DNA from: a virus
IMG/VR virus record: IMGVR_UViG_3300037510_000249
Direction: 5' to 3' (one strand)
DNA: 16,841 nucleotides
Part shown: positions 2,801-16,841 of the stretch, piece by piece
How the letters are laid out: the number at the start of each line of letters is the position of its first letter
How positions within the stretch are numbered: position 1 is the stretch's first letter
The notes under the pieces: model-generated
What the model was told of the DNA's origin: nothing
Seen by the model: only the letters and a program-made list of their open reading frames with translations
Database searches by the model: none
Made by a program: the position numbers and the translations under genes

Positions 2801-3511
2801 CTACGGGGCTGGCGGGGCCGACGCTGTGTTCTGCGCGGCCTGGCGCGCCTGCTCGCGGGCGTCGGTCACGAACGACTGGAACCACCACACGCCGTCAGCG
2901 TCTTTCTCGCGGGCGTCGGCCGGTACGGGGAGCTTTGTGTGCAGCACCGCATCGGAGATGACCTTGGCTCCGGCCTCGGTCTTGGCCCAGGCGGTGAGGA
3001 TGTCGGGCATCTCGTCGCGCAGCACCGCGCGTAGTTCGTCCTTGGTCACGTCGTCTCCCTCGCGGATGCGGTCGGCCACGCGCGCCACAGCGGCCGCGCT
3101 GGCGTTGATCTCGAAATGCATGTCATCGGGCCGGTTGACGTAGTCGCCGCCCCAGCGCACCACCCCGTCGAGGTCGGCCAGGATGGCGCGGATCTTCGCC
3201 CGGTCGCTCGAGCCGTACGTGTTGCGGACGCCCATCGGGTGCCGCTCCGCGTTGTAGTCGATCGCCGTCCCGCTCGAGTGGTTGGAGATCGTCGTACTGC
3301 CCTCGATGGGCTTGACGAACCACCCCCAGCACGCGCCCGGCATGATCGGTTCGACCTCGCGGTGCAGCCGGTCGATCAGGTACCGGAACACGACGTCGAC
3401 GTCACCCTTGAGCCAGCCGTTAGGGAACTCCGCGCCGTGCACGACCGGGTCGACCAGCTTGGAGCGCTGGGCGTCGGTGACGACCGGCCAGCCGTTCTGC
3501 GACGTGCTCAC
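2801..3511 (-). CDS. Endolysin, M15-family (VanY / L-Ala-D-Glu peptidase-like) zinc metallopeptidase, 236 aa
   Basis: SNHSSGTAIDYN (SxHxxGxAxD) and DDMHFEI motifs. GTG 3511 with GGAGG 6 nt upstream. The start overlaps the holin stop (GTGA). The C-terminal ~95 aa have no motif I recognise. Confidence 0.8.
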   Translation of the reverse strand: MSTSQNGWPVVTDAQRSKLVDPVVHGAEFPNGWLKGDVDVVFRYLIDRLHREVEPIMPGACWGWFVKPIEGSTTISNHSSGTAIDYNAERHPMGVRNTYGSSDRAKIRAILADLDGVVRWGGDYVNRPDDMHFEINASAAAVARVADRIREGDDVTKDELRAVLRDEMPDILTAWAKTEAGAKVISDAVLHTKLPVPADAREKDADGVWWFQSFVTDAREQARQAAQNTASAPPAP

Positions 3512-3861
3512 CGCAGGCCTCCGTTCCGGTACGCCTCGATGACCTTGACCGCGGCCCGGTCGGCAATGTCCTGCAACTCTGCCTCGCTGCGGCCGTTGGT
3601 CTGCTCGACGATGGTGTGCAGCTGGTCGGTTTGGTGGTCGGTCTTGGCCTCGACGGTCGCGGCCTTGCGCGCGGTGGCCATCTGGCCGGCGAACAGCCCC
3701 AGCGCCAGCGTCACGAACGCGGCGATTGCCTGGTCACTCCACCCGGCGCGGGCGAGGAACACCACCACCGCGCCGACGGTCAGCAGACCCGACACGGCGA
3801 CGATGGCCTGTGGCCAGTTGTCGATCTTCAAAGCGGTATCCCCCCTGCTCAGAGTGCCCAT
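3508..3861 (-). CDS. Holin-like membrane protein, 117 aa from ATG 3861 (alternative GTG 3891 gives 127 aa)
   Basis: Two hydrophobic helices (AIVAVSGLLTVGAVVVFLA and AIAAFVTLALGLFAG) and a charged C-terminus. GGAGGGAGG lies upstream of ATG 3861. The gene is immediately upstream of, and overlaps, the endolysin. Confidence 0.7.
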   Translation of the reverse strand: MGTLSRGDTALKIDNWPQAIVAVSGLLTVGAVVVFLARAGWSDQAIAAFVTLALGLFAGQMATARKAATVEAKTDHQTDQLHTIVEQTNGRSEAELQDIADRAAVKVIEAYRNGGLR

Positions 3862-3892
3862 TGTCCCACCTCCCTCCGACAGTTCAGGCACC

Positions 3893-4375
3893 TTACGGTG
3901 CGGGCATCGCGCCGACCTGGCGCGAGAAGTAGCTCATGGTCGGGGTGCCGCCCAGGGTGGCACCGAAGTACGTCGCGCACACGTTGTAGCTACTCCCGGC
4001 GGTCAGTCCCTCGACCAGGATCGAACAGCCGGCGGAGAGGGTCTGCCCCACGCTCGAGCCGACCTTGCACCCCGGGTCGACGGACGGGTCGAACACGACG
4101 GTTCCTGAGCCGACGGTGGCTCCGGAGCGCACCTGGGGGCCCATCTGGTGCTGTCCGGTGCCCGACACCAGCGTCGAGAAGGTGCCGGAGAACCAGATCA
4201 GCACTCGCCCGGACGCCGGCGCGGTGAAGGCCTCACCGCAGATCGTGGCCCCGTTCTGCGGGGTGGTGGTGACGGTGACTCCGGTGGCATTGTCGCCGTT
4301 GGAGTCCTGCACGCTGTTCGGGAGGTTGACGTCGGAGATGTCGACGACGTCCCCGCCGGCGGCGACGGTGGCCAT
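3893..4375 (-). CDS. Small tail-tip / putative receptor-binding protein, 160 aa
   Basis: ATG 4375-4373 lies 2 nt after the stop of the 701-aa gene, with GGAAGGGG upstream. Gly/Ser/Thr/Val-rich, beta-type composition. The upstream part of track ORF 3893-4936 is an overlap artefact. Confidence 0.6.
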   Translation of the reverse strand: MATVAAGGDVVDISDVNLPNSVQDSNGDNATGVTVTTTPQNGATICGEAFTAPASGRVLIWFSGTFSTLVSGTGQHQMGPQVRSGATVGSGTVVFDPSVDPGCKVGSSVGQTLSAGCSILVEGLTAGSSYNVCATYFGATLGGTPTMSYFSRQVGAMPAP

Positions 4376-4377
4376 GA

Positions 4378-6483
4378 TCAGCCCCTTCCGTACGAGTAGC
4401 GGCGCGGAGCCGAGATGTGGACCTCTTCGCCGGCGACGTGCGTCCGGCCGGCCCCGTTGACGTTGCGGGTGACGTTCAGCCCTTGGTCTGAACCGGAGGT
4501 GAACACGCTGGTCACCGTCATCTCTTCCCCGTTGATCTTGATGTTGTACGGGGTCTGCGTGCCCCAGCCGGGGGCCGGGCTGTTGACGTAGATCGTCCCG
4601 TACGTCGCTGAGTAGGTGCCGCCCGTACCGGCGCCCTTGTTGGCCACCGTCACGCTGCCGGCCACGTCGTAGCGGCTCGTCGTCGAGCCGTAGACGGCCA
4701 CCCGGAACACGTCCGCCGGTGCGACGGTGAACGTGACGACGTTGCGGTGCCGCCGCGAGCGCTGGGCGACCCGGAGCACCTGCAGGTACAGCAGGTCGGG
4801 CGTGCGCCCGGCGACGGCAATGACCATGCCGACGTCGATGCTGTTGACGGTGGTGAGGTCGGCCGACGTGGAGTCGAGGTCGACGGTGATCTCGGTGTAC
4901 CGCGAGCCCCCGACGGTGTACCGGTTGAGCCACCACCCGGCGATGCCGGGCAGCTCCGACTCGTCGTTGACGTTGACGTCGACGGTCTTGGGGACCTTGC
5001 CCATCGTGTCGACGCCCAGGGGCCCCGTGCTCAGCGTCGCCCTGGCGCTCGAGCCCTCCCGGTTCTTGGCCACGACGTCGTTAAAGGCGTCCGCCGTGGT
5101 GATCTCTTCGCGCATCGGCGGGGCGAGCTCCGACGGCCAGTTGAGGGTGATCACCGGGGCGATCGCCTGAGCCTCGAGGTAGTTGCGCAGCGCGAACACG
5201 ATGCCCGTGTTGTCGGCCCGGTCGAAGACCATGCCGCCCTCAGTCGCCCGGCACTCCTTGATGATCTCCTGCACGGTGGCGACCGGCTGGGGGCCCATCT
5301 TGGTCGACAGGCTGGCCGTGCCGAGCACGACGTACGGCAGGCCGGCGGCGTCAAGGGTGCGGGTGAACCGGTCGGCCGCGCGCTCGCCGTTGTAGCCGTC
5401 GAAGGCGTTCTGGAAGGCGAAGCTCTGCAGGTTGTCGGTGGTGCCGGTGAACAGCGCCACGTGCCCGACGTGCGCGTTCGCCGCCGGCGTGCCCGCCCCG
5501 CCGTACCAGTTCCAATCGACCGGGCGGCCCAGGCTCGTGCCCGCGTACGTCTCGGTGAAGCCGTAGAGCAGCGCGCTGTTCTGCGGGAACCATCCGGCCT
5601 CGATGGTGACGGAACCGCCGGAGACGTAGCACTTCAGGCGCGTCTCGATCCACTGGCCAGGCTCCGCGCCCGTGCCGTACGAGTAGGACGTGTCCTTCAC
5701 GGTGACGCCGTCGGAGTCGGTGATCAACAGGTTGTACGACGTGTTGTTGATCTTCCAACGCCAGAAGTAGCCGTTGCTGCAGCGGAACGTGAACGTGTTG
5801 CTCTTCGTCGCGTCGGTGCTGCCGACGTTGGCCACCCAGCAGACCTGCCAGCCGGTCGTGGAGACGTTCGTGGCGAACTTGCCACCGATCGAGGTGGTGG
5901 CGGTGGTGCCGACCAGCGGCGCGGAGCCGGCGGGGCCGTCGTCGTCGGCGAACCGCGCACTGATGGCGTACCCGGTCCGCGCGCCGGGGGCCAGCTGGGT
6001 CAGCCTGGTCGCATCCTTGCCGTCCTCGAGCGGCCAGTAGCCGCGCAGGTTGGCGTAGGAGGTGATCTGGGTGCGCATCGGGGATGTCACAGGGTCGCTG
6101 TAGCGTCCCAGCCGGCCCAGCGTGCCGCGGCCCTCGATGTCGACCCACCGCTTGCCCTTGATCGGCGGGCCCTCTTGGAAGTCGTCCGACTGGTCGGGCA
6201 CGTACCGGTCGACCTCGCCGGTGAACCGGACGCTGCCGCCGGTGGCGAACGCGCACCGCGAGTACTGGCGAAGGTCCCCGTAGTTCGGGCCGACGGTGTT
6301 GCTGGGCCGGTACACGTCGAGGTCGTCGAGCAGCCGGAACTTGAGCCACCCGGGCTTGAGGTCGTAGTCGTCGGTCACGCCCCGCTCGAGGGTGACCTCG
6401 ACGGCGTCCTCGACGTCGCCGTCGAGCACCTGCCACGCCCCGCCGTAGTACAGCTGGGCCCAGACGTTCCACGTCGTCGCCAT
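4378..6483 (-). CDS. Minor tail protein, 701 aa (distal-tail/hub-like ends with a central lectin/LamG-like insertion)
   Basis: Directly follows the tape measure with a TGATG overlap at 6485-6481. The segment YWPLEDGKDATRL... resembles concanavalin/LamG-type insertions seen in actinophage minor tail proteins. Assigned from position and composition only. Confidence 0.65.
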   Translation of the reverse strand: MATTWNVWAQLYYGGAWQVLDGDVEDAVEVTLERGVTDDYDLKPGWLKFRLLDDLDVYRPSNTVGPNYGDLRQYSRCAFATGGSVRFTGEVDRYVPDQSDDFQEGPPIKGKRWVDIEGRGTLGRLGRYSDPVTSPMRTQITSYANLRGYWPLEDGKDATRLTQLAPGARTGYAISARFADDDGPAGSAPLVGTTATTSIGGKFATNVSTTGWQVCWVANVGSTDATKSNTFTFRCSNGYFWRWKINNTSYNLLITDSDGVTVKDTSYSYGTGAEPGQWIETRLKCYVSGGSVTIEAGWFPQNSALLYGFTETYAGTSLGRPVDWNWYGGAGTPAANAHVGHVALFTGTTDNLQSFAFQNAFDGYNGERAADRFTRTLDAAGLPYVVLGTASLSTKMGPQPVATVQEIIKECRATEGGMVFDRADNTGIVFALRNYLEAQAIAPVITLNWPSELAPPMREEITTADAFNDVVAKNREGSSARATLSTGPLGVDTMGKVPKTVDVNVNDESELPGIAGWWLNRYTVGGSRYTEITVDLDSTSADLTTVNSIDVGMVIAVAGRTPDLLYLQVLRVAQRSRRHRNVVTFTVAPADVFRVAVYGSTTSRYDVAGSVTVANKGAGTGGTYSATYGTIYVNSPAPGWGTQTPYNIKINGEEMTVTSVFTSGSDQGLNVTRNVNGAGRTHVAGEEVHISAPRRYSYGRG

Positions 6484-9896: not shown

Positions 9897-10286
9897 TCAG
9901 TCGCGCGGGTCGGTCGTGACGTCGCCGTCGCCGGAGCCGATGCGGCCCAGCTCGTCGCGTACGGGCGTCCGGTCGGCCAGGGGGCCGTCGCCCTCGAGCC
10001 GCTCGAGCCGGCGCGTCTCGTCCTGGTCGCGCTTCTTGGCCTCCGGGCTCAGCGGCTCGATGCCCTCGCGGGACGCCGTCAGGGTCTCCCCGGTGAACGG
10101 GGAGACGGTGACGCCGTTCTGTGCGAGGTCGGCCGCCTCGCCGGCGGAGAGGTAGTCGGGCCGCCGCGGCACGGGCCGGCTGGCGGCCGTCGCGGTGCTG
10201 CCGGCGTCCTGGGCCGCCTCGAGCTCGGCCACCCGGTCGCGGAGCTGGGCGTTCTCCTGCTCGAGCTCGTCCTTCGTCGGTGCCAT
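9897..10286 (-). CDS. Hypothetical head-module protein, 129 aa, with an N-terminal coiled coil
   Basis: MAPTKDELEQENAQLRDRVAELEAAQ... GAGGGA SD lies 5 nt before ATG 10286. The gene sits between the capsid gene and the adaptor. Confidence 0.6.
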   Translation of the reverse strand: MAPTKDELEQENAQLRDRVAELEAAQDAGSTATAASRPVPRRPDYLSAGEAADLAQNGVTVSPFTGETLTASREGIEPLSPEAKKRDQDETRRLERLEGDGPLADRTPVRDELGRIGSGDGDVTTDPRD

Positions 10287-10366
10287 TGATGTCCCTCGAT
10301 TCTGCGCGTGCGGTGCGAATAGACGTAGGCGAATACCCGCACCTCACGGGCGGGTGCAAGATCGGG

Positions 10367-11749
10367 TCAGGCGACCGGGTCCCACGAGATGGTACGAACG
10401 CCGTTGGTGTCCGAGACGGCCGTGGCCATGTAGCCCCAGATCCCGAGGTAGATGTTCGCCACCTCCGTCTCGAAGGTGAGCCGCTGCGGAGCGGACGCCC
10501 ACAGGTGGACGCTGTCGCGCTCGAGCATGTAGCTCTTCGCCGCGGCGGTCTGGCCGGCGGCCGCCAGGGCCCACTCAGGCCAGAACGGCATGCCGGCGAC
10601 GTCGATGTAGCCGAACCGCGAGCCTGCCTGCCCGTTGGCGTTCGCCGGGCCGATCATCGGGTACAGCGGGCGGCCCTGGTCGTCCTTCGCCGCGGCGAGC
10701 GCCTTGTAGAGATCGGCCTGGGTGAAGGTGTCGGTGAACCGGAAACCGCCCCGCACGAACTGCAGGTCGGTCATGCCGGCCTCGATCTCGCCGGAGAGCG
10801 TCTGCCCGGTGTCGGCGTTGCCGGCCGTCAGGGTGGCCAGCGCGGTGAACGAGCCAGCGTTGAGCTCCGCGACGACCGCGGCCTCACGGGCTTCGTAGTG
10901 GCCCTTCACCATCTGGTTCCAGATCAGGGTGGACACCTGGGGGTTGCCGCCCTGGTCCCACACCTCGCGGTGGATCTTGGCCTTGCCGCTGTAGCCGGTC
11001 GGCGTCACCGTCTGCTTGGTCACGACGAACGTGCCGGAGCTCGGCTCGGTGCCCTCGGTGTGCGCGGCGACCAGGCCGGACGCGCTCGAGAACTTCGGGA
11101 ACATGAACGGGGTGATGTCCGTCAGCGGGCCCTTGTACGTGGCCTCGCTGAGCGGGTACCGGTAGGCGCGCTGGTCGACGTACATCTCCGGGCGGTTGCG
11201 CGTCGGGTTGAGCTCGTCGACGTCGGTGGTGGCCACGTCGAACTGGCGCTGTGCCCAGGACAGGGCCCGGTCGTGCGCCGCGGCGTCGCCGGCGGAGAAC
11301 CAGGCGTAGAGGTCCTGGGAGAAGTCGTGCGTGCCGCGCAGCAGGATCTCACCGCCGCGGCGGTCGAAGATCCGCCGGTACGGCTCCGGCTCGTTGACCC
11401 GGACGGTGCCGGTGAACGTCTGGCCACCGGTGGCCGGCGCGCCGGGCAGCGGCAGGGCGGTCGGGTTGACCGGCTGGGCGACCGGTGGGGCGGCGGCGAT
11501 CTGGCCGTTCGCCTGCATCTGGCCGACCAGGGCGTTGAATGCCGCGTTCAGGGCGTCGGCGCTCACCGGGGCCGGGGGCTGCGGCGACGGCTGGGGCTGC
11601 GGCTGCGGGGCCGGCTGGCCCGGGGTCGGCTGGGCGTACGTTCCCGCGGGCAGGGCCGCGGGCTGGGCGGGCGGGGCCGGGTACAGCTGTGCGGCCACCG
11701 CGCACGACATGCCCTGCGGGTGCGGGCGCTGGCAGTGCTGGCAGTTCAT
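10367..11749 (-). CDS. Putative internally initiated major capsid protein (460 aa), nested in frame in the fusion ORF
   Basis: ATG 11749-11747 (Met606) is preceded by cAGGAGGAacg. The product starts MNCQHCQRPHPQGMSCAVAAQLYPAPPAQ... Confidence 0.55.
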   Translation of the reverse strand: MNCQHCQRPHPQGMSCAVAAQLYPAPPAQPAALPAGTYAQPTPGQPAPQPQPQPSPQPPAPVSADALNAAFNALVGQMQANGQIAAAPPVAQPVNPTALPLPGAPATGGQTFTGTVRVNEPEPYRRIFDRRGGEILLRGTHDFSQDLYAWFSAGDAAAHDRALSWAQRQFDVATTDVDELNPTRNRPEMYVDQRAYRYPLSEATYKGPLTDITPFMFPKFSSASGLVAAHTEGTEPSSGTFVVTKQTVTPTGYSGKAKIHREVWDQGGNPQVSTLIWNQMVKGHYEAREAAVVAELNAGSFTALATLTAGNADTGQTLSGEIEAGMTDLQFVRGGFRFTDTFTQADLYKALAAAKDDQGRPLYPMIGPANANGQAGSRFGYIDVAGMPFWPEWALAAAGQTAAAKSYMLERDSVHLWASAPQRLTFETEVANIYLGIWGYMATAVSDTNGVRTISWDPVA

Positions 11750-13564
11750 CGTTCCTCCTGTCAGGCTCGCGGCCACCTTGGTCACGCGGGCATCGTCGAA
11801 TGCGGGCATCGGAGTGGCGGACGTTTCGCGCCACGTGGCCCGGAGCACGTCGTAGACCTGCTCCCGGTCGTTCCACTCGACGTCCCCGTCGGCAGGGTCG
11901 AGGGAGAAGTCGACGCCGACGGACAGGCCGTCGTACAGCCCGTGCTCGGCGTCGTAGAGCAGCTGATCCCGCTCGGCCTTGATCGGGGAGCCCTCCGGGC
12001 CGTCGAGCACGTGCAGCTGCACGACCGGGCCCGCCTTGCCGTCGGTGACGCCGGTGTGCACACCCACCGGGGTGCCGTGGTCCTTGAGCACCTTGAGCCG
12101 GCTGAGGTTGTTCGGGTCGTACTCGAGCGACCCAGCGCGGAACCGGAACCCCACGCCGAACTTGCGCGCCACCGCCCCATACGGCAGGGCCAGGCCGGTG
12201 ATGGTGCGCTGGGCGACGTCGACGGTGGGAGCGGCCGCCTGGGCGTCGAACTCCCGGACCGCGAACGTCAGGGCCGGGCCTCCGTCGAAACGGCCGGCCA
12301 GCTGGGGCAGCGGCGCGCCGACGGTGGCCGTGACCCGGATCGGGGGCCGGCTGTTCTGGCCCGGGTCGCCGCCGGCGGGCAGCGCCGCCGGCGCGGCCGC
12401 GGGACGGCCGTCGAGCGGCACGCCGGCCTGGTCAGCGATCCAATCGGACGTGGCTGCGCCCATGTCGAAGAGTCCCCTCCAGTACGTGACCAGGGTGGCC
12501 GGGTCGGGCTTGAGGTAGTCGGTGAGGTCCCAGCGCACGCGCTGTCCGCGCGGGGTGATGTCCTGCATCGACAGGCGGTCGGTGACCGCGGCGAGGTAGC
12601 CGGCGTACGTCTCGTTGATCTTCGTGAGCCGCCGGTCGGTGGCGTTGAAGTACGTGCGCGACGTCGTCGAGACGCCGACGTCCTCCGGGTCGACGCCCAT
12701 GAACAGCGCGAGCTCGAGCGCCGCCTGACGCTGCAGCTCGACCAGTTGCAGCTCTGCCGGCGACGGGGCGGAGACGTCGAGCCGCTTGACCTCGCCGGGG
12801 ATGTACGCCGGGCCGCCGCGCTTGCGGGCCGCCCGGTACGACGCCAGGAACTCGACGACCTGGTCGTCGTCGTACGGGGTGATCGTCTGGTCGTCGGAGT
12901 CGGTGAACGTCTCGAGCGGCCGCGGGTTGTCGGCGTACATGGCGGCCAGGGCGTCGAGCAGCAGGGCCTTCCGGATGGCGCGCTGTCCGGTCTGCAGCAT
13001 CGCCCGGTTCGGGGAGTCGAACCGGATCAGCAGCGACGCCGCGACCGGCTCACCGTCGACGTACAGCACGCCGCCGCGCGGGTCGATGCCCGACGGCAGG
13101 GGGGCCGGTGTGCGGCCCTGGGGCGGGTTGACGGACACGACGCCGGGGGCGAGCCGGCGCGCGGACAGGGGGAAGCCCCTCGAGTCGACCGCGGTCTTGA
13201 TCCACCACGAGATGCCGTCGCAGAGCAGGTCCTCGAAGGTCTGCGCCAGCATCACCGACCGGGGCACGTCCGGGTCGGGTTGGTCGAGGAACGGGCGGGC
13301 GATGATCTCGCGGCCGCGGTAGTTCGTGAGCGGCAGGGTGGCCAGGCTGCAGATGCCGTCGCGGCCGCGCTTGACCGCGGCGATCGACAGGGCGTCGTCA
13401 CGGCCGAACGGGCCCGTCAGGACGTCGCTGCGGCCCAGCAGCCCCCGTACCAGGGCGTCGATCGGGCCGGACTCGAATCGGTGCTGTGCGGCCAGCTGGG
13501 CGGGCGACGGGGCGATGCCGAGCATCGAGCCGACCTGCAGCCGTAGAGCTCTCCACCATCCCAT
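10367..13564 (-). CDS. Portal - prohead protease - major capsid protein in a single 1065-codon ORF
   Basis: Uninterrupted frame, with three recognisable parts listed as separate features below. Confidence 0.8.
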   Translation of the reverse strand: MGWWRALRLQVGSMLGIAPSPAQLAAQHRFESGPIDALVRGLLGRSDVLTGPFGRDDALSIAAVKRGRDGICSLATLPLTNYRGREIIARPFLDQPDPDVPRSVMLAQTFEDLLCDGISWWIKTAVDSRGFPLSARRLAPGVVSVNPPQGRTPAPLPSGIDPRGGVLYVDGEPVAASLLIRFDSPNRAMLQTGQRAIRKALLLDALAAMYADNPRPLETFTDSDDQTITPYDDDQVVEFLASYRAARKRGGPAYIPGEVKRLDVSAPSPAELQLVELQRQAALELALFMGVDPEDVGVSTTSRTYFNATDRRLTKINETYAGYLAAVTDRLSMQDITPRGQRVRWDLTDYLKPDPATLVTYWRGLFDMGAATSDWIADQAGVPLDGRPAAAPAALPAGGDPGQNSRPPIRVTATVGAPLPQLAGRFDGGPALTFAVREFDAQAAAPTVDVAQRTITGLALPYGAVARKFGVGFRFRAGSLEYDPNNLSRLKVLKDHGTPVGVHTGVTDGKAGPVVQLHVLDGPEGSPIKAERDQLLYDAEHGLYDGLSVGVDFSLDPADGDVEWNDREQVYDVLRATWRETSATPMPAFDDARVTKVAASLTGGTMNCQHCQRPHPQGMSCAVAAQLYPAPPAQPAALPAGTYAQPTPGQPAPQPQPQPSPQPPAPVSADALNAAFNALVGQMQANGQIAAAPPVAQPVNPTALPLPGAPATGGQTFTGTVRVNEPEPYRRIFDRRGGEILLRGTHDFSQDLYAWFSAGDAAAHDRALSWAQRQFDVATTDVDELNPTRNRPEMYVDQRAYRYPLSEATYKGPLTDITPFMFPKFSSASGLVAAHTEGTEPSSGTFVVTKQTVTPTGYSGKAKIHREVWDQGGNPQVSTLIWNQMVKGHYEAREAAVVAELNAGSFTALATLTAGNADTGQTLSGEIEAGMTDLQFVRGGFRFTDTFTQADLYKALAAAKDDQGRPLYPMIGPANANGQAGSRFGYIDVAGMPFWPEWALAAAGQTAAAKSYMLERDSVHLWASAPQRLTFETEVANIYLGIWGYMATAVSDTNGVRTISWDPVA
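10370..11392 (-). other. HK97-fold major capsid core (about aa 725-1065)
   Basis: Typical length and position. It is preceded by a Pro/Gln/Ala linker (aa 625-715) and a helical segment VSADALNAAFNALVGQMQANG that resembles a delta/scaffold domain. Confidence 0.65.
11750..11759 (-). promoter_or_regulatory. Internal Shine-Dalgarno AGGAGGA inside coding sequence (codons LTGGT)
   Basis: The plus strand has gttcctcctg at 11751-11760. The minus strand reads CAGGAGGAACG-ATG, with 4 nt between GGAGG and ATG. Confidence 0.6.
11765..12292 (-). other. HK97-type (S78) prohead protease-like region (about aa 425-600)
   Basis: TITGLALPYGAVA, LKVLKDHGTPVGVH (His motif) and DGLSVGVDF (Ser motif). Confidence 0.65.
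12365..13564 (-). other. Portal-like region (about aa 1-400) of the fusion ORF
   Basis: ALSIAAVKRGRDGICSLATLPL...PFLDQPDPDVPRSVMLAQTFEDLLCDGISWWIK...RRLAPGVVSVN follows the HK97-family portal pattern. Confidence 0.7.
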
Positions 13565-13600
13565 GATCGGGAGTGTACGTCTGCCCTGGTGACAACGGTG

Positions 13601-15238
13601 TCAGCCGATCGAATGCAGTCCGGCGCGCTTCACCGGGGCGGGGATCGTGCGGGCCAGCTGCACGGCTCCGGCCATGGCGTACGCCGCGGTGACGTGGCCC
13701 GCCCCGTCGCGGCGCGCGACCACCCAGGCTCCGCCGTCGCCCAGCGACACCTTCTCGCTGTTCTCGAGGTGCTGGCGCGCGAGGTCCTGGCCGGCCTGGG
13801 CCAGCTTGCCGGCGCGCATGAGCGACGCGAACCCCATCACCGCGGCGGAGGCCTCGCCCTTGATCTCGGTCACCCGGATGCCGCGCGGTGGCCACCCGCG
13901 GCGCACGCGGCCGCGGGGCTGGGCGAGCTCGGCGTTCAGGGCCTCCGCCGCGGTCTTGGGGAACCACCCGAACACGTACGGCCGCACCCGGGCGAGCCAC
14001 GTGAGCACGTCCTCGCGGCCGTCGCCGCCGTCGCGGACCTGGTCGACCGACGACCAGGACGCGACCACCTCGACGCGCACGCGCCCGTCGGGCAGCACCG
14101 CGGCGACGGCCAGGGCGGCATGGTCGAGGTCCGGCGCGACGTCGAGGCACGCGGCGATGCGGCCGCGGTATCCCTCGAGCGTGCCGACGTCGAGGCAGCG
14201 GCCCCAGGCCGCGAGGTCGAACGCCGCTGTCATCGACCGGACCCAGATGCACATGGCCTCGGTCTTGAACTTGGCCAGGGCCTCGCCGCCGGCGTGCACG
14301 GCCTTGCGGGCCGCGCCGAGCAGGGCGTCAGGGTCGATGCGGTGGTAGAGGTTCGGGTTGGCCAGGGCCAGGGCGTCGACGTCGAGGGGGTCGGCGTCCT
14401 CCGGGCACGACCAGGAGAACAGGCCGGAGCGGTAGTCGCCCGGGGCGTCGTGCAGCAGCTCCGCGACGTGCTCCGCGCCGACTTCGTCGACCCAGGTGGT
14501 GAAGGCGGTGGCCTCGTTCATGAGGTCGGACATCACCACGGAGCGGGCGTCGCCGGCGTTGCTGATGGCCCACACCTGAAAGTGGCGCACCGCGTTGCCG
14601 GCGTTCACCGACGCCGCCCAGGCTGAGTAGTCGTGGTGCTGGCGGAGCTCGTCGAGGATGAGCCGGTGAACGGTGAGGGAGCGGCCGCCTTCCTCGTTGC
14701 TGGGGGCGATCTTGTACCGGGCCCCGTTCGTCGTCCATGACTCCTGCTCGCCGTTGGCCTCCCGGGTCCACCGGCGGGCACGCTGACGTCGCAGCGACGG
14801 CGCGGCCTCCGCCACCCGGACGGCCTTGTGCCACGACTCCTTGGCGTAGTCCAGTTTGGTCGAGGTGCCGAGCACCATCTCGACGTCGCACACGAACTGC
14901 CACCACAGCGACAGGATCACCAGCAGCGTCGTCTTGCCGTTCTGCCGCGCGACCTCGACGGTGAGGATGCGGAACCGCGGCCGCCCGTCGGGCAGCAGCT
15001 CGAGGCCGTGGATCAGGGCCCAGCGTTCCCAGGGGTCGGCCGGGAAGTGCAGCACCGTCGCCGCCCAGTCGACGACGTCGAAGCCGTACGACGTGTCGGG
15101 GGTCAGCGCGCACCCGCACCCGCACGGCCCCGGGGGGCCCGTCACAAGGGGCGGGGTGAAGATCCGCGGGGTGACGCTACCCGTTGCCGGCCTGGCGCTC
15201 GGCGAACCGCCGGCGGTGCTCGTCGTGGCTCGCGTCAT
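13601..15238 (-). CDS. terL: Terminase large subunit, 545 aa
   Basis: Walker A-like VARQNGKTT. DPWERWALIHGLELLPDG sits at the N-terminus. Size and position fit, just upstream of the portal. ATG 15238 with GGGGGTGA upstream overlaps terS by 62 nt. A later start (GTG ~15147) is possible. Confidence 0.85.
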   Translation of the reverse strand: MTRATTSTAGGSPSARPATGSVTPRIFTPPLVTGPPGPCGCGCALTPDTSYGFDVVDWAATVLHFPADPWERWALIHGLELLPDGRPRFRILTVEVARQNGKTTLLVILSLWWQFVCDVEMVLGTSTKLDYAKESWHKAVRVAEAAPSLRRQRARRWTREANGEQESWTTNGARYKIAPSNEEGGRSLTVHRLILDELRQHHDYSAWAASVNAGNAVRHFQVWAISNAGDARSVVMSDLMNEATAFTTWVDEVGAEHVAELLHDAPGDYRSGLFSWSCPEDADPLDVDALALANPNLYHRIDPDALLGAARKAVHAGGEALAKFKTEAMCIWVRSMTAAFDLAAWGRCLDVGTLEGYRGRIAACLDVAPDLDHAALAVAAVLPDGRVRVEVVASWSSVDQVRDGGDGREDVLTWLARVRPYVFGWFPKTAAEALNAELAQPRGRVRRGWPPRGIRVTEIKGEASAAVMGFASLMRAGKLAQAGQDLARQHLENSEKVSLGDGGAWVVARRDGAGHVTAAYAMAGAVQLARTIPAPVKRAGLHSIG

Positions 15239-15512
15239 CGGCGCTCACCCCCTGCGGTGAGCCGACCGTGCCGCCGGCCGTCGCACCGCGGCCGGCGCGG
15301 GTGAGCCCCAGCGCGGTGAGCGTACGGAGGTACTGCGGGCCGGCGACCTTGATGATCTCGAGGCGCGTCTCGAGGCCGGCGAGGTTGTCCGCGGTGTCGG
15401 CCGCGGCGTCGAGCAGGCCGGCCAGGACGTCGGCCAGCGCGGCCCCTGCAGCGTCGGAATCCGGAAGCTGGGCAGCGCGGAGCGATGCGCGGAGTTTGCT
15501 GCGGTTGCTCAC
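15177..15512 (-). CDS. terS: Terminase small subunit (putative), 111 aa
   Basis: Position immediately upstream of, and overlapping, terL. Ala/Leu-rich helical protein ending in a basic tail. GTG start without a clear SD. Confidence 0.55.
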   Translation of the reverse strand: MSNRSKLRASLRAAQLPDSDAAGAALADVLAGLLDAAADTADNLAGLETRLEIIKVAGPQYLRTLTALGLTRAGRGATAGGTVGSPQGVSADDASHDEHRRRFAERQAGNG

Positions 15513-15603
15513 GGTATGCGCCGCGGATGCAGCCGATGCCGGGGAGAGAGAGAGGACAGGGCGCGGGTGTCCGGCCCCCCCACCTGCGGGAAAAATCCGG
15601 CCG

Positions 15604-16686: not shown

Positions 16687-16841
16687 TCACTCGCTTGTTT
16701 TGTTGGCTGCGTCATAGTGATCGCCTCCGCCCGGACCCGTCAAGTCCACTGCGGAGGCGATCGCGCTTTCTGGGCCCTGATTTCGCTGTGAGCGAACACG
16801 CGGGTGAATGACGGCCTCGAGCACCGTCCGGCCGTACTCCT
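16687..16841 (-). CDS. 3' end of the same Cys-rich gene, seen again in the right terminal repeat copy
   Basis: The minus strand reads ...GGC GAT CAC TAT GAC GCA GCC AAC AAA ACA AGC GAG TGA. This tail has lower GC3 and spans the 3-50 hairpin sequence. Confidence 0.55.
   Translation of the reverse strand, partial: EYGRTVLEAVIHPRVRSQRNQGPESAIASAVDLTGPGGGDHYDAANKTSE
16715..16841. repeat. Right copy of the 127-nt terminal direct repeat
   Basis: Identical to nt 1-127. Confidence 0.95.

Follow-up and report, generated by a model that had tools for sequence, protein, structure and literature searches.

A conserved portal-protease-capsid fusion gene with a predicted internal capsid start in very small phages

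Introduction

Tailed phages need one portal per head together with a suitable dose of maturation protease, and the control of both is still debated. How these demands might be satisfied from a single gene is the question raised by a stretch of viral DNA, IMG/VR record IMGVR_UViG_3300037510_000249 (16,841 nt, ~72% GC; the whole of this stretch is referred to below as the window), in which an HK97-family portal, an S78-type prohead protease and an HK97-fold major capsid protein follow one another in one open reading frame (ORF) of 1065 amino acids (aa), with an ATG start, at positions 10367-13564 of the minus strand. A head takes 12 portal subunits and, by our own estimate for so small a genome, a couple of hundred capsid subunits. 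The answer that we consider likely is that this one head-assembly ORF is read in two ways, a long form being made from a leaderless mRNA and a short capsid precursor from an internal start led by a Shine-Dalgarno (SD) sequence.

Results

Portal, protease and capsid modules share one open frame

Translation confirms that the minus-strand frame is free of stops from 13564 down to its stop codon at 10367-10369, as the initial annotation of the window had claimed. The order of its parts is portal, linker, S78-type protease, linker, CCHC knuckle, Pro/Gln/Ala-rich linker with one helix, and HK97-fold capsid. Because the GC content is ~72%, long open frames are cheap, and the opposite strand carries a 1141-aa ORF (10121-13546) that is an Arg/Gly-rich shadow translation; the fusion ORF has a GC content of 0.70/0.52/0.95 at the three codon positions, as in a live gene. 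The division into portal, S78 protease and HK97-fold capsid modules, also part of the initial annotation, is upheld by profile searches, by an AlphaFold2 model (built on 69 homologues; mean predicted local distance difference test score, pLDDT, 74.9) and by Foldseek comparisons, the model showing three predicted folded modules parted by disordered linkers.

The portal domain (~aa 55-385; 12410-13402, minus strand, as are all features of the ORF given below) is modeled as an HK97-family portal fold with pLDDT of 80-96. Pfam PF04860 (Phage_portal) matches aa 74-373 with 46.5 bits against a cut-off of 39.1 and over profile positions 14-313 of 321, PHROG 12 matches as well (E = 3.4e-11), and the best Foldseek matches in the PDB are 3kdr, 8cez and 8fql (E 1e-15 to 1e-11, target template modeling (TM) score 0.64-0.71). 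As expected of the family, the portal is predicted to form a dodecameric ring at one capsid vertex. A first linker, variable in sequence and length (~aa 386-429; 12278-12409), is disordered in the model, with pLDDT below 50 across aa 389-428, and leads into the protease domain (~aa 430-586; 11807-12277; pLDDT 86-96), which is of the Peptidase_S78, or HK97 gp4, type. PHROG 80 (head maturation protease) covers aa 438-600 (E = 1.6e-4), TIGR01543 matches the segment weakly (16.7 versus a cut-off of 59), and a scan of the whole ORF with NCBIfam returned no family. His496 (12077-12079; KDHGTPVG) and Ser548 (11921-11923; GLSVGV) are invariant in 69 sequences and are presumed to be the catalytic pair, by analogy with HK97 gp4 rather than by structural superposition.

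The capsid domain (~aa 725-1065; 10370-11392) has pLDDT of ~33-92, mostly 80-90, and is matched in Foldseek by dozens of HK97-fold capsids, including those of HK97, Bxb1, D3, Oxtober96 and a gene transfer agent (GTA), with E of 1e-9 to 1e-7 and target TM of ~0.5-0.68. At the level of profiles, PHROG 2263 ('major head protein', 551 positions) runs in one stretch over aa 443-1062 (positions 29-544, E = 3.8e-29) and PHROG 10 matches aa 822-972 (E = 7.7e-6), while no capsid family was found by Pfam on aa 606-1065 at E <= 1 and no match by phmmer with aa 421-1065 against PDB sequences.

The fusion is conserved across relatives

A protein search returned more than 100 clusters of homologues that match 97-100% of the ORF, with an identity of 47-61% and a length of 950-1140 aa; they come from JGI, ENA and Logan data and from NCBI isolates, some of them represented by complete chromosomes. 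Most of the contigs that carry them are 16.4-17.7 kb long, and the others lie inside Micromonospora, Salinispora, Plantactinospora and Streptomyces chromosomes; NCBI and gene callers label the resulting ~1000-1140-aa proteins 'phage portal protein' or 'hypothetical protein'. Of the 135 related loci taken for comparison, 79 came from IMG/VR, which yielded 385 confirmed related stretches, and the other 56 from reference genomes; in 109 of the 135, portal, S78-type protease and HK97-fold capsid stand in one open frame with no stop between the domains. Furthermore, the interval corresponding to aa 372-453, which spans the portal-protease linker, occurs in 34 distinct lengths (55-92 codons) that are all in frame, implying many independent insertions or deletions, each a multiple of three.

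The triple fusion is thus genuine and conserved, and the view that it arose through an error of assembly or sequencing, or is a pseudogene decaying within a defective element, is effectively refuted. The window is a single metagenomic contig, and one chromosomal copy, in Micromonospora sp. M12 (L119), is visibly decaying, being broken by several frameshifts; however, the same architecture appears in independent JGI, ENA, Logan and NCBI assemblies, its codon positions have the composition of a live gene, and an independent contig (L010) is 99% identical to the window. Among the loci inside or close to the fused clade that depart from the pattern, L105 has an extra open frame of ~1.9 kb between portal and protease, followed by a stop, L112 (from a nanopore metagenome-assembled genome, MAG) has the capsid in another frame, and L122 (also from a MAG) has the portal in a different frame. 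A megablast search of 10000-14000 against 50,697 deposited phage genomes gave no match, and by tblastn no deposited phage record covered at least 80% of the ORF, which indicates that the architecture is absent from the deposited phages searched.

No separate start parts protease from portal in the main clade

The initial annotation had stated that no start or SD separates portal from protease, and in the main clade this is borne out: Met residues stand at 368, 586 and 606 with none between 368 and 586, Val411 is encoded by GTC, and the alignment of the main clade has no conserved start with an SD in the linker columns. As there is no protease start in this clade, the protease would be translated only as a C-terminal extension of the portal. 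A hidden protease start at the Met of a GPxMTF consensus at the portal/protease junction was considered and rejected; this residue, which alternates with Leu, Phe, His, Trp and Ala, has no SD before it and is simply a hydrophobic position of the strand that opens the protease fold.

It might instead be supposed that the portal is made separately, by a programmed frameshift or termination near the end of its domain, and that the continuous frame is incidental to the high GC content. In fact, a base-composition calculation indicates that ~30% of random 70-codon stretches would be stop-free at 72% GC, and in relatives with two genes the portal frame overlaps the adjacent protease frame by 8 nt. 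Nonetheless, a slippery heptamer is present in just 1 of 102 sequences, off-frame stops are distant and unconserved, the 34 linker lengths never shift the frame, and the main clade, having no protease start, would be left with no protease at all if ribosomes did not read through. We find this explanation barely credible.

A conserved SD and start codon lie at the protease/capsid boundary

At the protease/capsid boundary the mRNA reads cAGGAGGAacgATG, in which the SD AGGAGGA (11753-11759), set within the codons Thr-Gly-Gly and with a duplex energy of -11.9 kcal/mol, precedes Met606 (11747-11749), an internal in-frame ATG; both coordinates had been given in the initial annotation and are confirmed. 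This start opens a nested ORF of 460 aa (10367-11749; family median 439 aa) that would encode a capsid precursor with an N-terminal extension of ~120 aa. The SD had also been called the strongest in the window, which does not hold, its place among the 900 start-like codons being only the 10th, behind several true gene starts; it is, by duplex energy, the strongest among the 45 in-frame ATG/GTG codons of the ORF. A single AGGAGG is itself unremarkable (4 in the window, 7.6 expected).

What sets the site apart is its conservation, analyzed in 102 non-identical fused ORFs. The Met606 column tops the alignment for the combination of start and SD (54 sequences, the next column having 25), and in all 102 ORFs an in-frame ATG (87) or GTG (15) lies at most 12 codons after the invariant Ala599. 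The SD:anti-SD duplex at this start has a median of -10.1 kcal/mol, with 102/102 at -6 or better and 92-97% at -8 or better; the 5139 remaining internal ATG/GTG codons, taken as controls, have a median of -3.1 kcal/mol, with 5.9% of them at -8 or better. The spacing between AGGAGG and the start in homologues is 4 or 7 nt. Also significant is the observation that the peptide encoded over the SD differs from one homologue to the next (LTGGT, KGDH, TEGTA, KKESL, RKDST) while the purine-rich SD persists, and that GGA makes up 75% of the Gly codons in the six codons before the start versus 5.9% elsewhere. A scan of synonymous sites has its ORF-wide peak at residues 600-604 (ratio 1.42; median 1.08, 99th percentile 1.30), local RNA structure is at its lowest within +/-300 nt at the internal start (-7.4 versus ~-13 kcal/mol), and A content rises near it, in an A-rich, GC-poor dip that reaches ~-60 nt.

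These independent signatures argue that the SD and start are a functional translation-initiation site, embedded in coding sequence and under selection at the nucleotide level. Since the fusion is kept in 109 loci and the SD and start in 102/102 ORFs, the arrangement is more than chance, and a conserved and selected SD-start is what nested in-frame genes as in lambda C/Nu3, the proposal of the initial annotation, would predict. Met368, with an SD of -9.8 in the window, was examined as a second internal start and discarded, its SD being present in only 18/101 homologues.

The same signatures bear on two other accounts of the site. In the first, the ORF is an obligatory 1:1 polyprotein and the SD-like site is not a start but, for example, a pause for folding of the protease, with excess portal and protease degraded or wasted. 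Leaderless translation can be efficient, and the fusion in Gordonia phage Emperor, which has no internal SD-start, indicates that 1:1 synthesis of protease and capsid is viable in some relatives. A pause needs no start codon, however, yet 102/102 ORFs keep an in-frame ATG or GTG 4-9 nt after the SD, and the start that is kept sits in the least-structured stretch of the region; by our reasoning, moreover, at least ~20 portal subunits would be made for each one used, a heavy cost for a 16.7-kb phage. We judge the obligatory polyprotein highly unlikely. In the second account, the capsid has an mRNA of its own, from a promoter within the protease region, and the SD-ATG is used mainly there, as in herpesvirus UL26/UL26.5. 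This fits all features at the SD-ATG, including the A-rich, GC-poor dip to ~-60 nt, but the strongest synonymous constraint is limited to residues 600-604, with none at 585-593, and no internal sigma-70-like promoter or terminator was found in 10300-15600, a weak test given that the scan covers actinobacterial and phage-specific promoters poorly. A separate capsid mRNA appears unlikely to us.

The long form probably opens a leaderless transcript

The start of the fusion ORF is of a different kind. Met1 (13562-13564) is without an SD (duplex -0.6 kcal/mol), and an alternative at Met14 has a duplex of only -4.2 kcal/mol; most structural genes of the window have clear SDs of -9 to -16 kcal/mol. 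The Met1 column is a start codon in 86 of 95 homologues and is preceded by an SD in only 3, with a family median of ~-2.2 kcal/mol, which is the background level. Located 7 nt upstream of Met1, at 13572-13577, is a -10-like hexamer, TACACT (TANNNT), and across the family 73 of 86 homologues have a TANNNT whose end lies 5-9 nt (nearly always 6-7 nt) ahead of the start, versus 24 of 5666 control codons (0.4%). A non-coding gap of 11-172 nt separates the terminase stop from the fusion start in all 70 homologues examined, and the TANNNT tendency is found in two-gene relatives as well. Small inverted repeats occur farther upstream in many members, and that of the window, TGACACCGTTGTCA at 13603-13590, overlaps the terminase stop; such repeats may serve as operator or terminator.

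Of the primary transcription starts of mycobacteria, 73% have a TANNNT motif centered 7-12 bp upstream, and transcripts without a leader are common there (PMC3898074). The combination typical of actinomycete leaderless mRNAs, a TANNNT -10 box and no SD, is that found at Met1 in the 73 of 86 family members, and the conserved box together with the missing SD points to a leaderless mRNA with its own promoter; the fusion ORF probably opens such a transcript, with a transcription start placed by its distance from the -10 box. With Met1 leaderless and Met606 led by an SD, the two products would start by different mechanisms.

The initial annotation had further described the full-length product as rare. 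A missing SD does not on its own imply rarity, as the leaderless mRNAs of mycobacteria show no systematic deficit in translation (PMC7148126); given this and the -10 box, an interpretation of the missing SD as a sign of weak translation was withdrawn, and the ratio of long to short form cannot be read from the sequence.

The nested start is older than the portal fusion

The portal has a gene to itself in 16 loci that are more distant (Nocardioides, Nostocoides and some Kribbella among them), as it does in the cultured phages Kels, Mariposa and Emperor. Among two-gene relatives from metagenomes and genomes, the protease-capsid gene is provided with an SD and ATG/GTG that overlap the portal stop, and in L117-L134 an 8-nt overlap of the type ATGCCTGA recurs, in which the protease-capsid start lies 5 nt before the portal stop and the SD inside the portal gene. 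With such an overlap, one single-base insertion or deletion could fuse the frames.

All 16 two-gene loci have the SD-start at the protease/capsid boundary, as do Kels and Mariposa, cultured Arthrobacter phages in which the gene is annotated 'major capsid and protease fusion protein' and the nested capsid start is unannotated (Kels, L136, 3242-4870: Met176, SD -9.6; Mariposa, L138, 2469-4052: Met160, SD -9.2). The presence of the nested start in relatives with a separate portal indicates that it is older than the portal fusion, and the earlier notion that the internal start arose as an answer to that fusion has to be abandoned.

A rough neighbor-joining tree places the two-gene forms at the base and a derived clade of ~95 sequences, including the window, that is almost uniformly fused; a few fused forms also occur among the basal lineages. 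This is compatible with one main origin of the fusion and a few independent fusions or reversions, the tree being too rough to decide. Three Kribbella loci (L100, L101 and L115), although fused in frame, retain a GTG preceded by AGGAGG or GAAGGA where portal and protease join, and two of them (L101 and L115) have a canonical AAGGAG SD at the portal start in place of the -10 box; the three loci may be intermediates in the evolution of the fusion, or may stem from an independent one.

In Emperor (L137), gene 10 (3648-5507, 'capsid and capsid maturation protease') has ~120 leading residues with two hydrophobic, membrane-like segments, and an SD AAAGGA with an ATG at Met121, just before the protease domain. 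The start of this gene may have been misannotated, or the gene may be a further case of nesting.

Features flanking the internal start

The protease fold is followed by a conserved tail, PMPAFDDARVTKVAAS (aa 587-599 and neighbors; 11768-11806), which is disordered in the model (pLDDT ~27 over aa 587-604). Its sequence, P-A-F-D-D-A-R-V-T-K-V-A-A-S, is nearly invariant, with Pro587, Ala588, Ala592, Arg593, Val597 and Ala599 invariant, and the tail, as PAFDDARVTKVAAS, is recognizable in Kels, Mariposa and Emperor at ~30% overall identity. No excess of synonymous conservation is seen here, so that the constraint acts on the protein; the tail is a candidate cleavage site, or a candidate peptide for capsid docking or targeting.

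Two residues past Met606 begins a CCHC knuckle, C608-x2-C611-x3-H615-x5-C621 (11702-11743), and aa 606-631 are modeled as a small hairpin and helix (pLDDT 52-71). The initial annotation had placed a knuckle behind the internal Met, and the motif is indeed there in the window, but it is not a family-wide trait, being present in ~2/3 of the 102 homologues while the others have an acidic, Thr/Pro-rich N-terminus instead. Where present it begins 1-4 residues past the internal Met, and it occurs as well in the two-gene relatives L126, L130 and L105. The motif may bind metal; no obvious role is known to us for a zinc knuckle that stands at the front of a capsid precursor and faces the inside of the head.

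The remainder of the extension (11393-11701) is a Pro/Gln/Ala-rich linker, with disorder over aa 632-667 and 692-723 and one helix at aa 669-685 (nt 11510-11560; pLDDT ~70-79). Pro (25), Ala (24) and Gln (16) account for much of the 119 residues of the N-terminal extension, and this segment is probably scaffold-like or delta-like and lost at maturation.

Genome and neighboring genes

Bases 1-127 of the window are repeated exactly at 16715-16841, and this 127-base direct repeat at the window ends indicates a circular assembly and hence a complete genome of ~16,714 bp (~16.7 kb), which we propose to be that of a very small siphovirus-type phage of high-GC Actinomycetota. Its genes comprise a helix-turn-helix (HTH) regulator, small and large terminase, the fusion ORF, adaptor, major tail protein, chaperone, neck protein, tape measure, minor tail protein and an M15 lysin. 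Besides the fusion ORF, no second portal, protease, scaffold or capsid gene is found in the complete genome, the nested capsid ORF being its sole capsid gene. Directly upstream of the fusion ORF lies the large terminase gene (13601-15238, minus; PHROG 9, E = 3.3e-65), the stop of which (13601-13603) is 36 nt before Met1. The HTH_3 regulator (274-636, minus) is divergent from two plus-strand ORFs (640-1071 and 1518-2498) that have good coding GC at third codon positions (GC3) and are without a family match. No integrase or replication gene was recognized in the genome, although relatives are integrated in actinobacterial chromosomes. The strongest SD:anti-SD duplex of the window (-19.5 kcal/mol) is at 3861 on the minus strand, inside ORF 3508-3891; the start-like codon there, 10 codons into this ORF beside the lysin, is probably the true start.

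Discussion

A model for two products from one head-assembly ORF

In the two-way reading that we favor, the long form (1065 aa) would start at Met1 as the 5'-terminal AUG of a leaderless late transcript, and the short form (460 aa) would arise from independent ribosome entry at the embedded SD-ATG of Met606. As 12 portal subunits but a couple of hundred capsid subunits are needed, the short form would be the source of the shell subunits, which number in the hundreds, and the long form that of the 12 portal subunits and the sole copies of the protease. The portal of phage T4 tolerates bulky C-terminal fusions, which end up inside the head (PMC3012670); with portal C-termini directed inward and such fusions tolerated, a ring of long forms would place its protease and capsid domains within or beside the nascent shell. 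Once the head is assembled, cleavage of the disordered linkers by the protease would free mature portal and capsid and take off the N-terminal extensions. That the portal is released by self-cleavage is accordingly a predicted step of this scheme.

The long form might also act as the initiator of assembly, a portal ring of 12 chains, each with a protease and a capsid subunit on flexible tethers that reach into the future shell, nucleating polymerization of the separately made capsid protein; we offer this tentatively, as a possibility that we doubt more than we believe. Were it true, each particle would receive exactly one portal vertex and a fixed dose of 12 proteases without a separate scaffold or targeting signal, and the two initiation mechanisms would let the phage set or regulate the ratio of the products.

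Several observations weigh against the two-way reading. The spacing between AGGAGG and ATG in the window, 4 nt, is at the short end of the usual range, and the host anti-SD sequence and promoter rules applied throughout were assumed from general actinobacterial knowledge. The protease segment of the window scores 12.4 bits with PF04586, under the cut-off of 21; homologues ~60% identical to it (P0016 and P0064) reach 26.7 bits at the equivalent place and over profile positions 7-156 of 165. The homologous protease-capsid fusion of Emperor is without an SD-start at the protease/capsid boundary, so that an obligatory fusion is evidently workable in some phages. Made from a leaderless mRNA, the long form could also be abundant, with the excess of portal wasted or degraded. 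Finally, the use of both starts in vivo, the ratio of the products and the cleavage sites are predictions made from the sequence.

Relationship to known systems

The closest parallels in way of working are lambda C/Nu3, UL26/UL26.5 of HSV-1 (herpes simplex virus type 1) and gp17 of the archaeal virus HFTV1, which make a long product that bears a protease and, from an internal in-frame start, a more abundant short product that is co-terminal with it. In those systems, however, the shared C-terminus is a scaffold, with capsid and portal encoded by separate genes, whereas in the fusion ORF the shared C-terminus is the major capsid protein and the long form adds a portal at the N-terminus. The lambda C protease, moreover, is of ClpP/S49 type, and that of the fusion ORF is of S78 (HK97 gp4) type, and the resemblance is best regarded as an analogy in operation rather than a relationship of sequence. 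The nested start of HFTV1 gp17 was shown by ribosome profiling, with lambda and HSV-1 named as precedents (10.64898/2026.09.13.751334).

Related by descent are the protease-capsid fusions of small actinophages (PHROG 2263; Kels gp5, Mariposa gp7 and Emperor gp10), which are homologous at ~30% tblastn identity and have the same order of domains. In Kels and Mariposa, as in the fusion ORF, an SD-ATG directly follows a conserved ...PAF..A.V..VAA(S/N) tail. In these three phages, unlike the window, the portal is a separate gene, overlapping or upstream, and the protease-capsid gene has its own SD-led start. The end-to-end match to PHROG 2263, combined with the lack of a separate portal or protease start, makes the fusion ORF a derived architectural variant of that family. 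Natural fusions of protease and major capsid protein (MCP) have also been described in the 'capsid polyprotein' of Pseudomonas phage PAJU2 and ORF18 of Lactococcus phage Nocturne116 (PMC8306868), which resemble the window in this fusion and differ from it in having a separate portal gene.

Compared with phage HK97 (portal gp3, protease gp4, capsid gp5), the fusion ORF has the same three folds in the same order and likewise no separate scaffold gene accompanies it, but the three genes of HK97 are here one ORF. The N-terminal extension of the HK97 capsid has a counterpart that is presumably scaffold-like and removed; it is of low complexity, Pro/Gln/Ala-rich with one helix and an optional CCHC knuckle, whereas the delta domain of HK97 is long and helical.

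A further analogy is offered by retroviral Gag and Gag-Pro-Pol, where the protease, tethered in a rarer long form to an abundant structural protein, is assembled along with it and then cuts the polyprotein. In retroviruses a frameshift or read-through at the 3' end of gag determines the ratio; here internal initiation would do so, and the extra domains are N-terminal. The retroviral nucleocapsid knuckle, C-x2-C-x4-H-x4-C, spans 14 residues, as does the C-x2-C-x3-H-x5-C motif of the window, a likeness that is an analogy only and does not imply homology.

Implications

The architecture is widespread, yet it is undescribed in the literature searched. No natural portal fusion was found there, 'portal fusion protein' referring to engineered T4 and phi29 constructs, and the nested capsid start is likewise unreported; natural protease-capsid fusions appear only in genome announcements and in the work on PAJU2 and Nocturne116, and a preprint presenting a structural dendrogram of actinophage capsids makes no mention of fusions. 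Nor was a description found of a leaderless start and a strong SD-led start on one reading frame of one gene. Because the fusion proteins are labeled as portal or hypothetical proteins, the capsid and protease of this phage group are invisible to annotation-based surveys, and the nested capsid gene has been missed in cultured SEA-PHAGES genomes too, such as those of Kels and Mariposa.

Lysogenic copies are present in culturable Micromonospora and Salinispora strains, which makes the predictions directly testable; intact copies are carried, for example, by Salinispora vitiensis DSM 45548 (L082), Micromonospora chokoriensis NRRL B-24750 (L092) and Plantactinospora sp. B6F1 (L111). The family represents a natural experiment in which, across hundreds of genomes, portal, protease and a capsid subunit are covalently linked and the bulk of the capsid protein would come from a conserved internal start, with the dose of protease tied to the portal, as the protease has no other source. 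If the tether does have a role in assembly, it would constitute a minimal, scaffold-free means of nucleating a head and loading it with protease.

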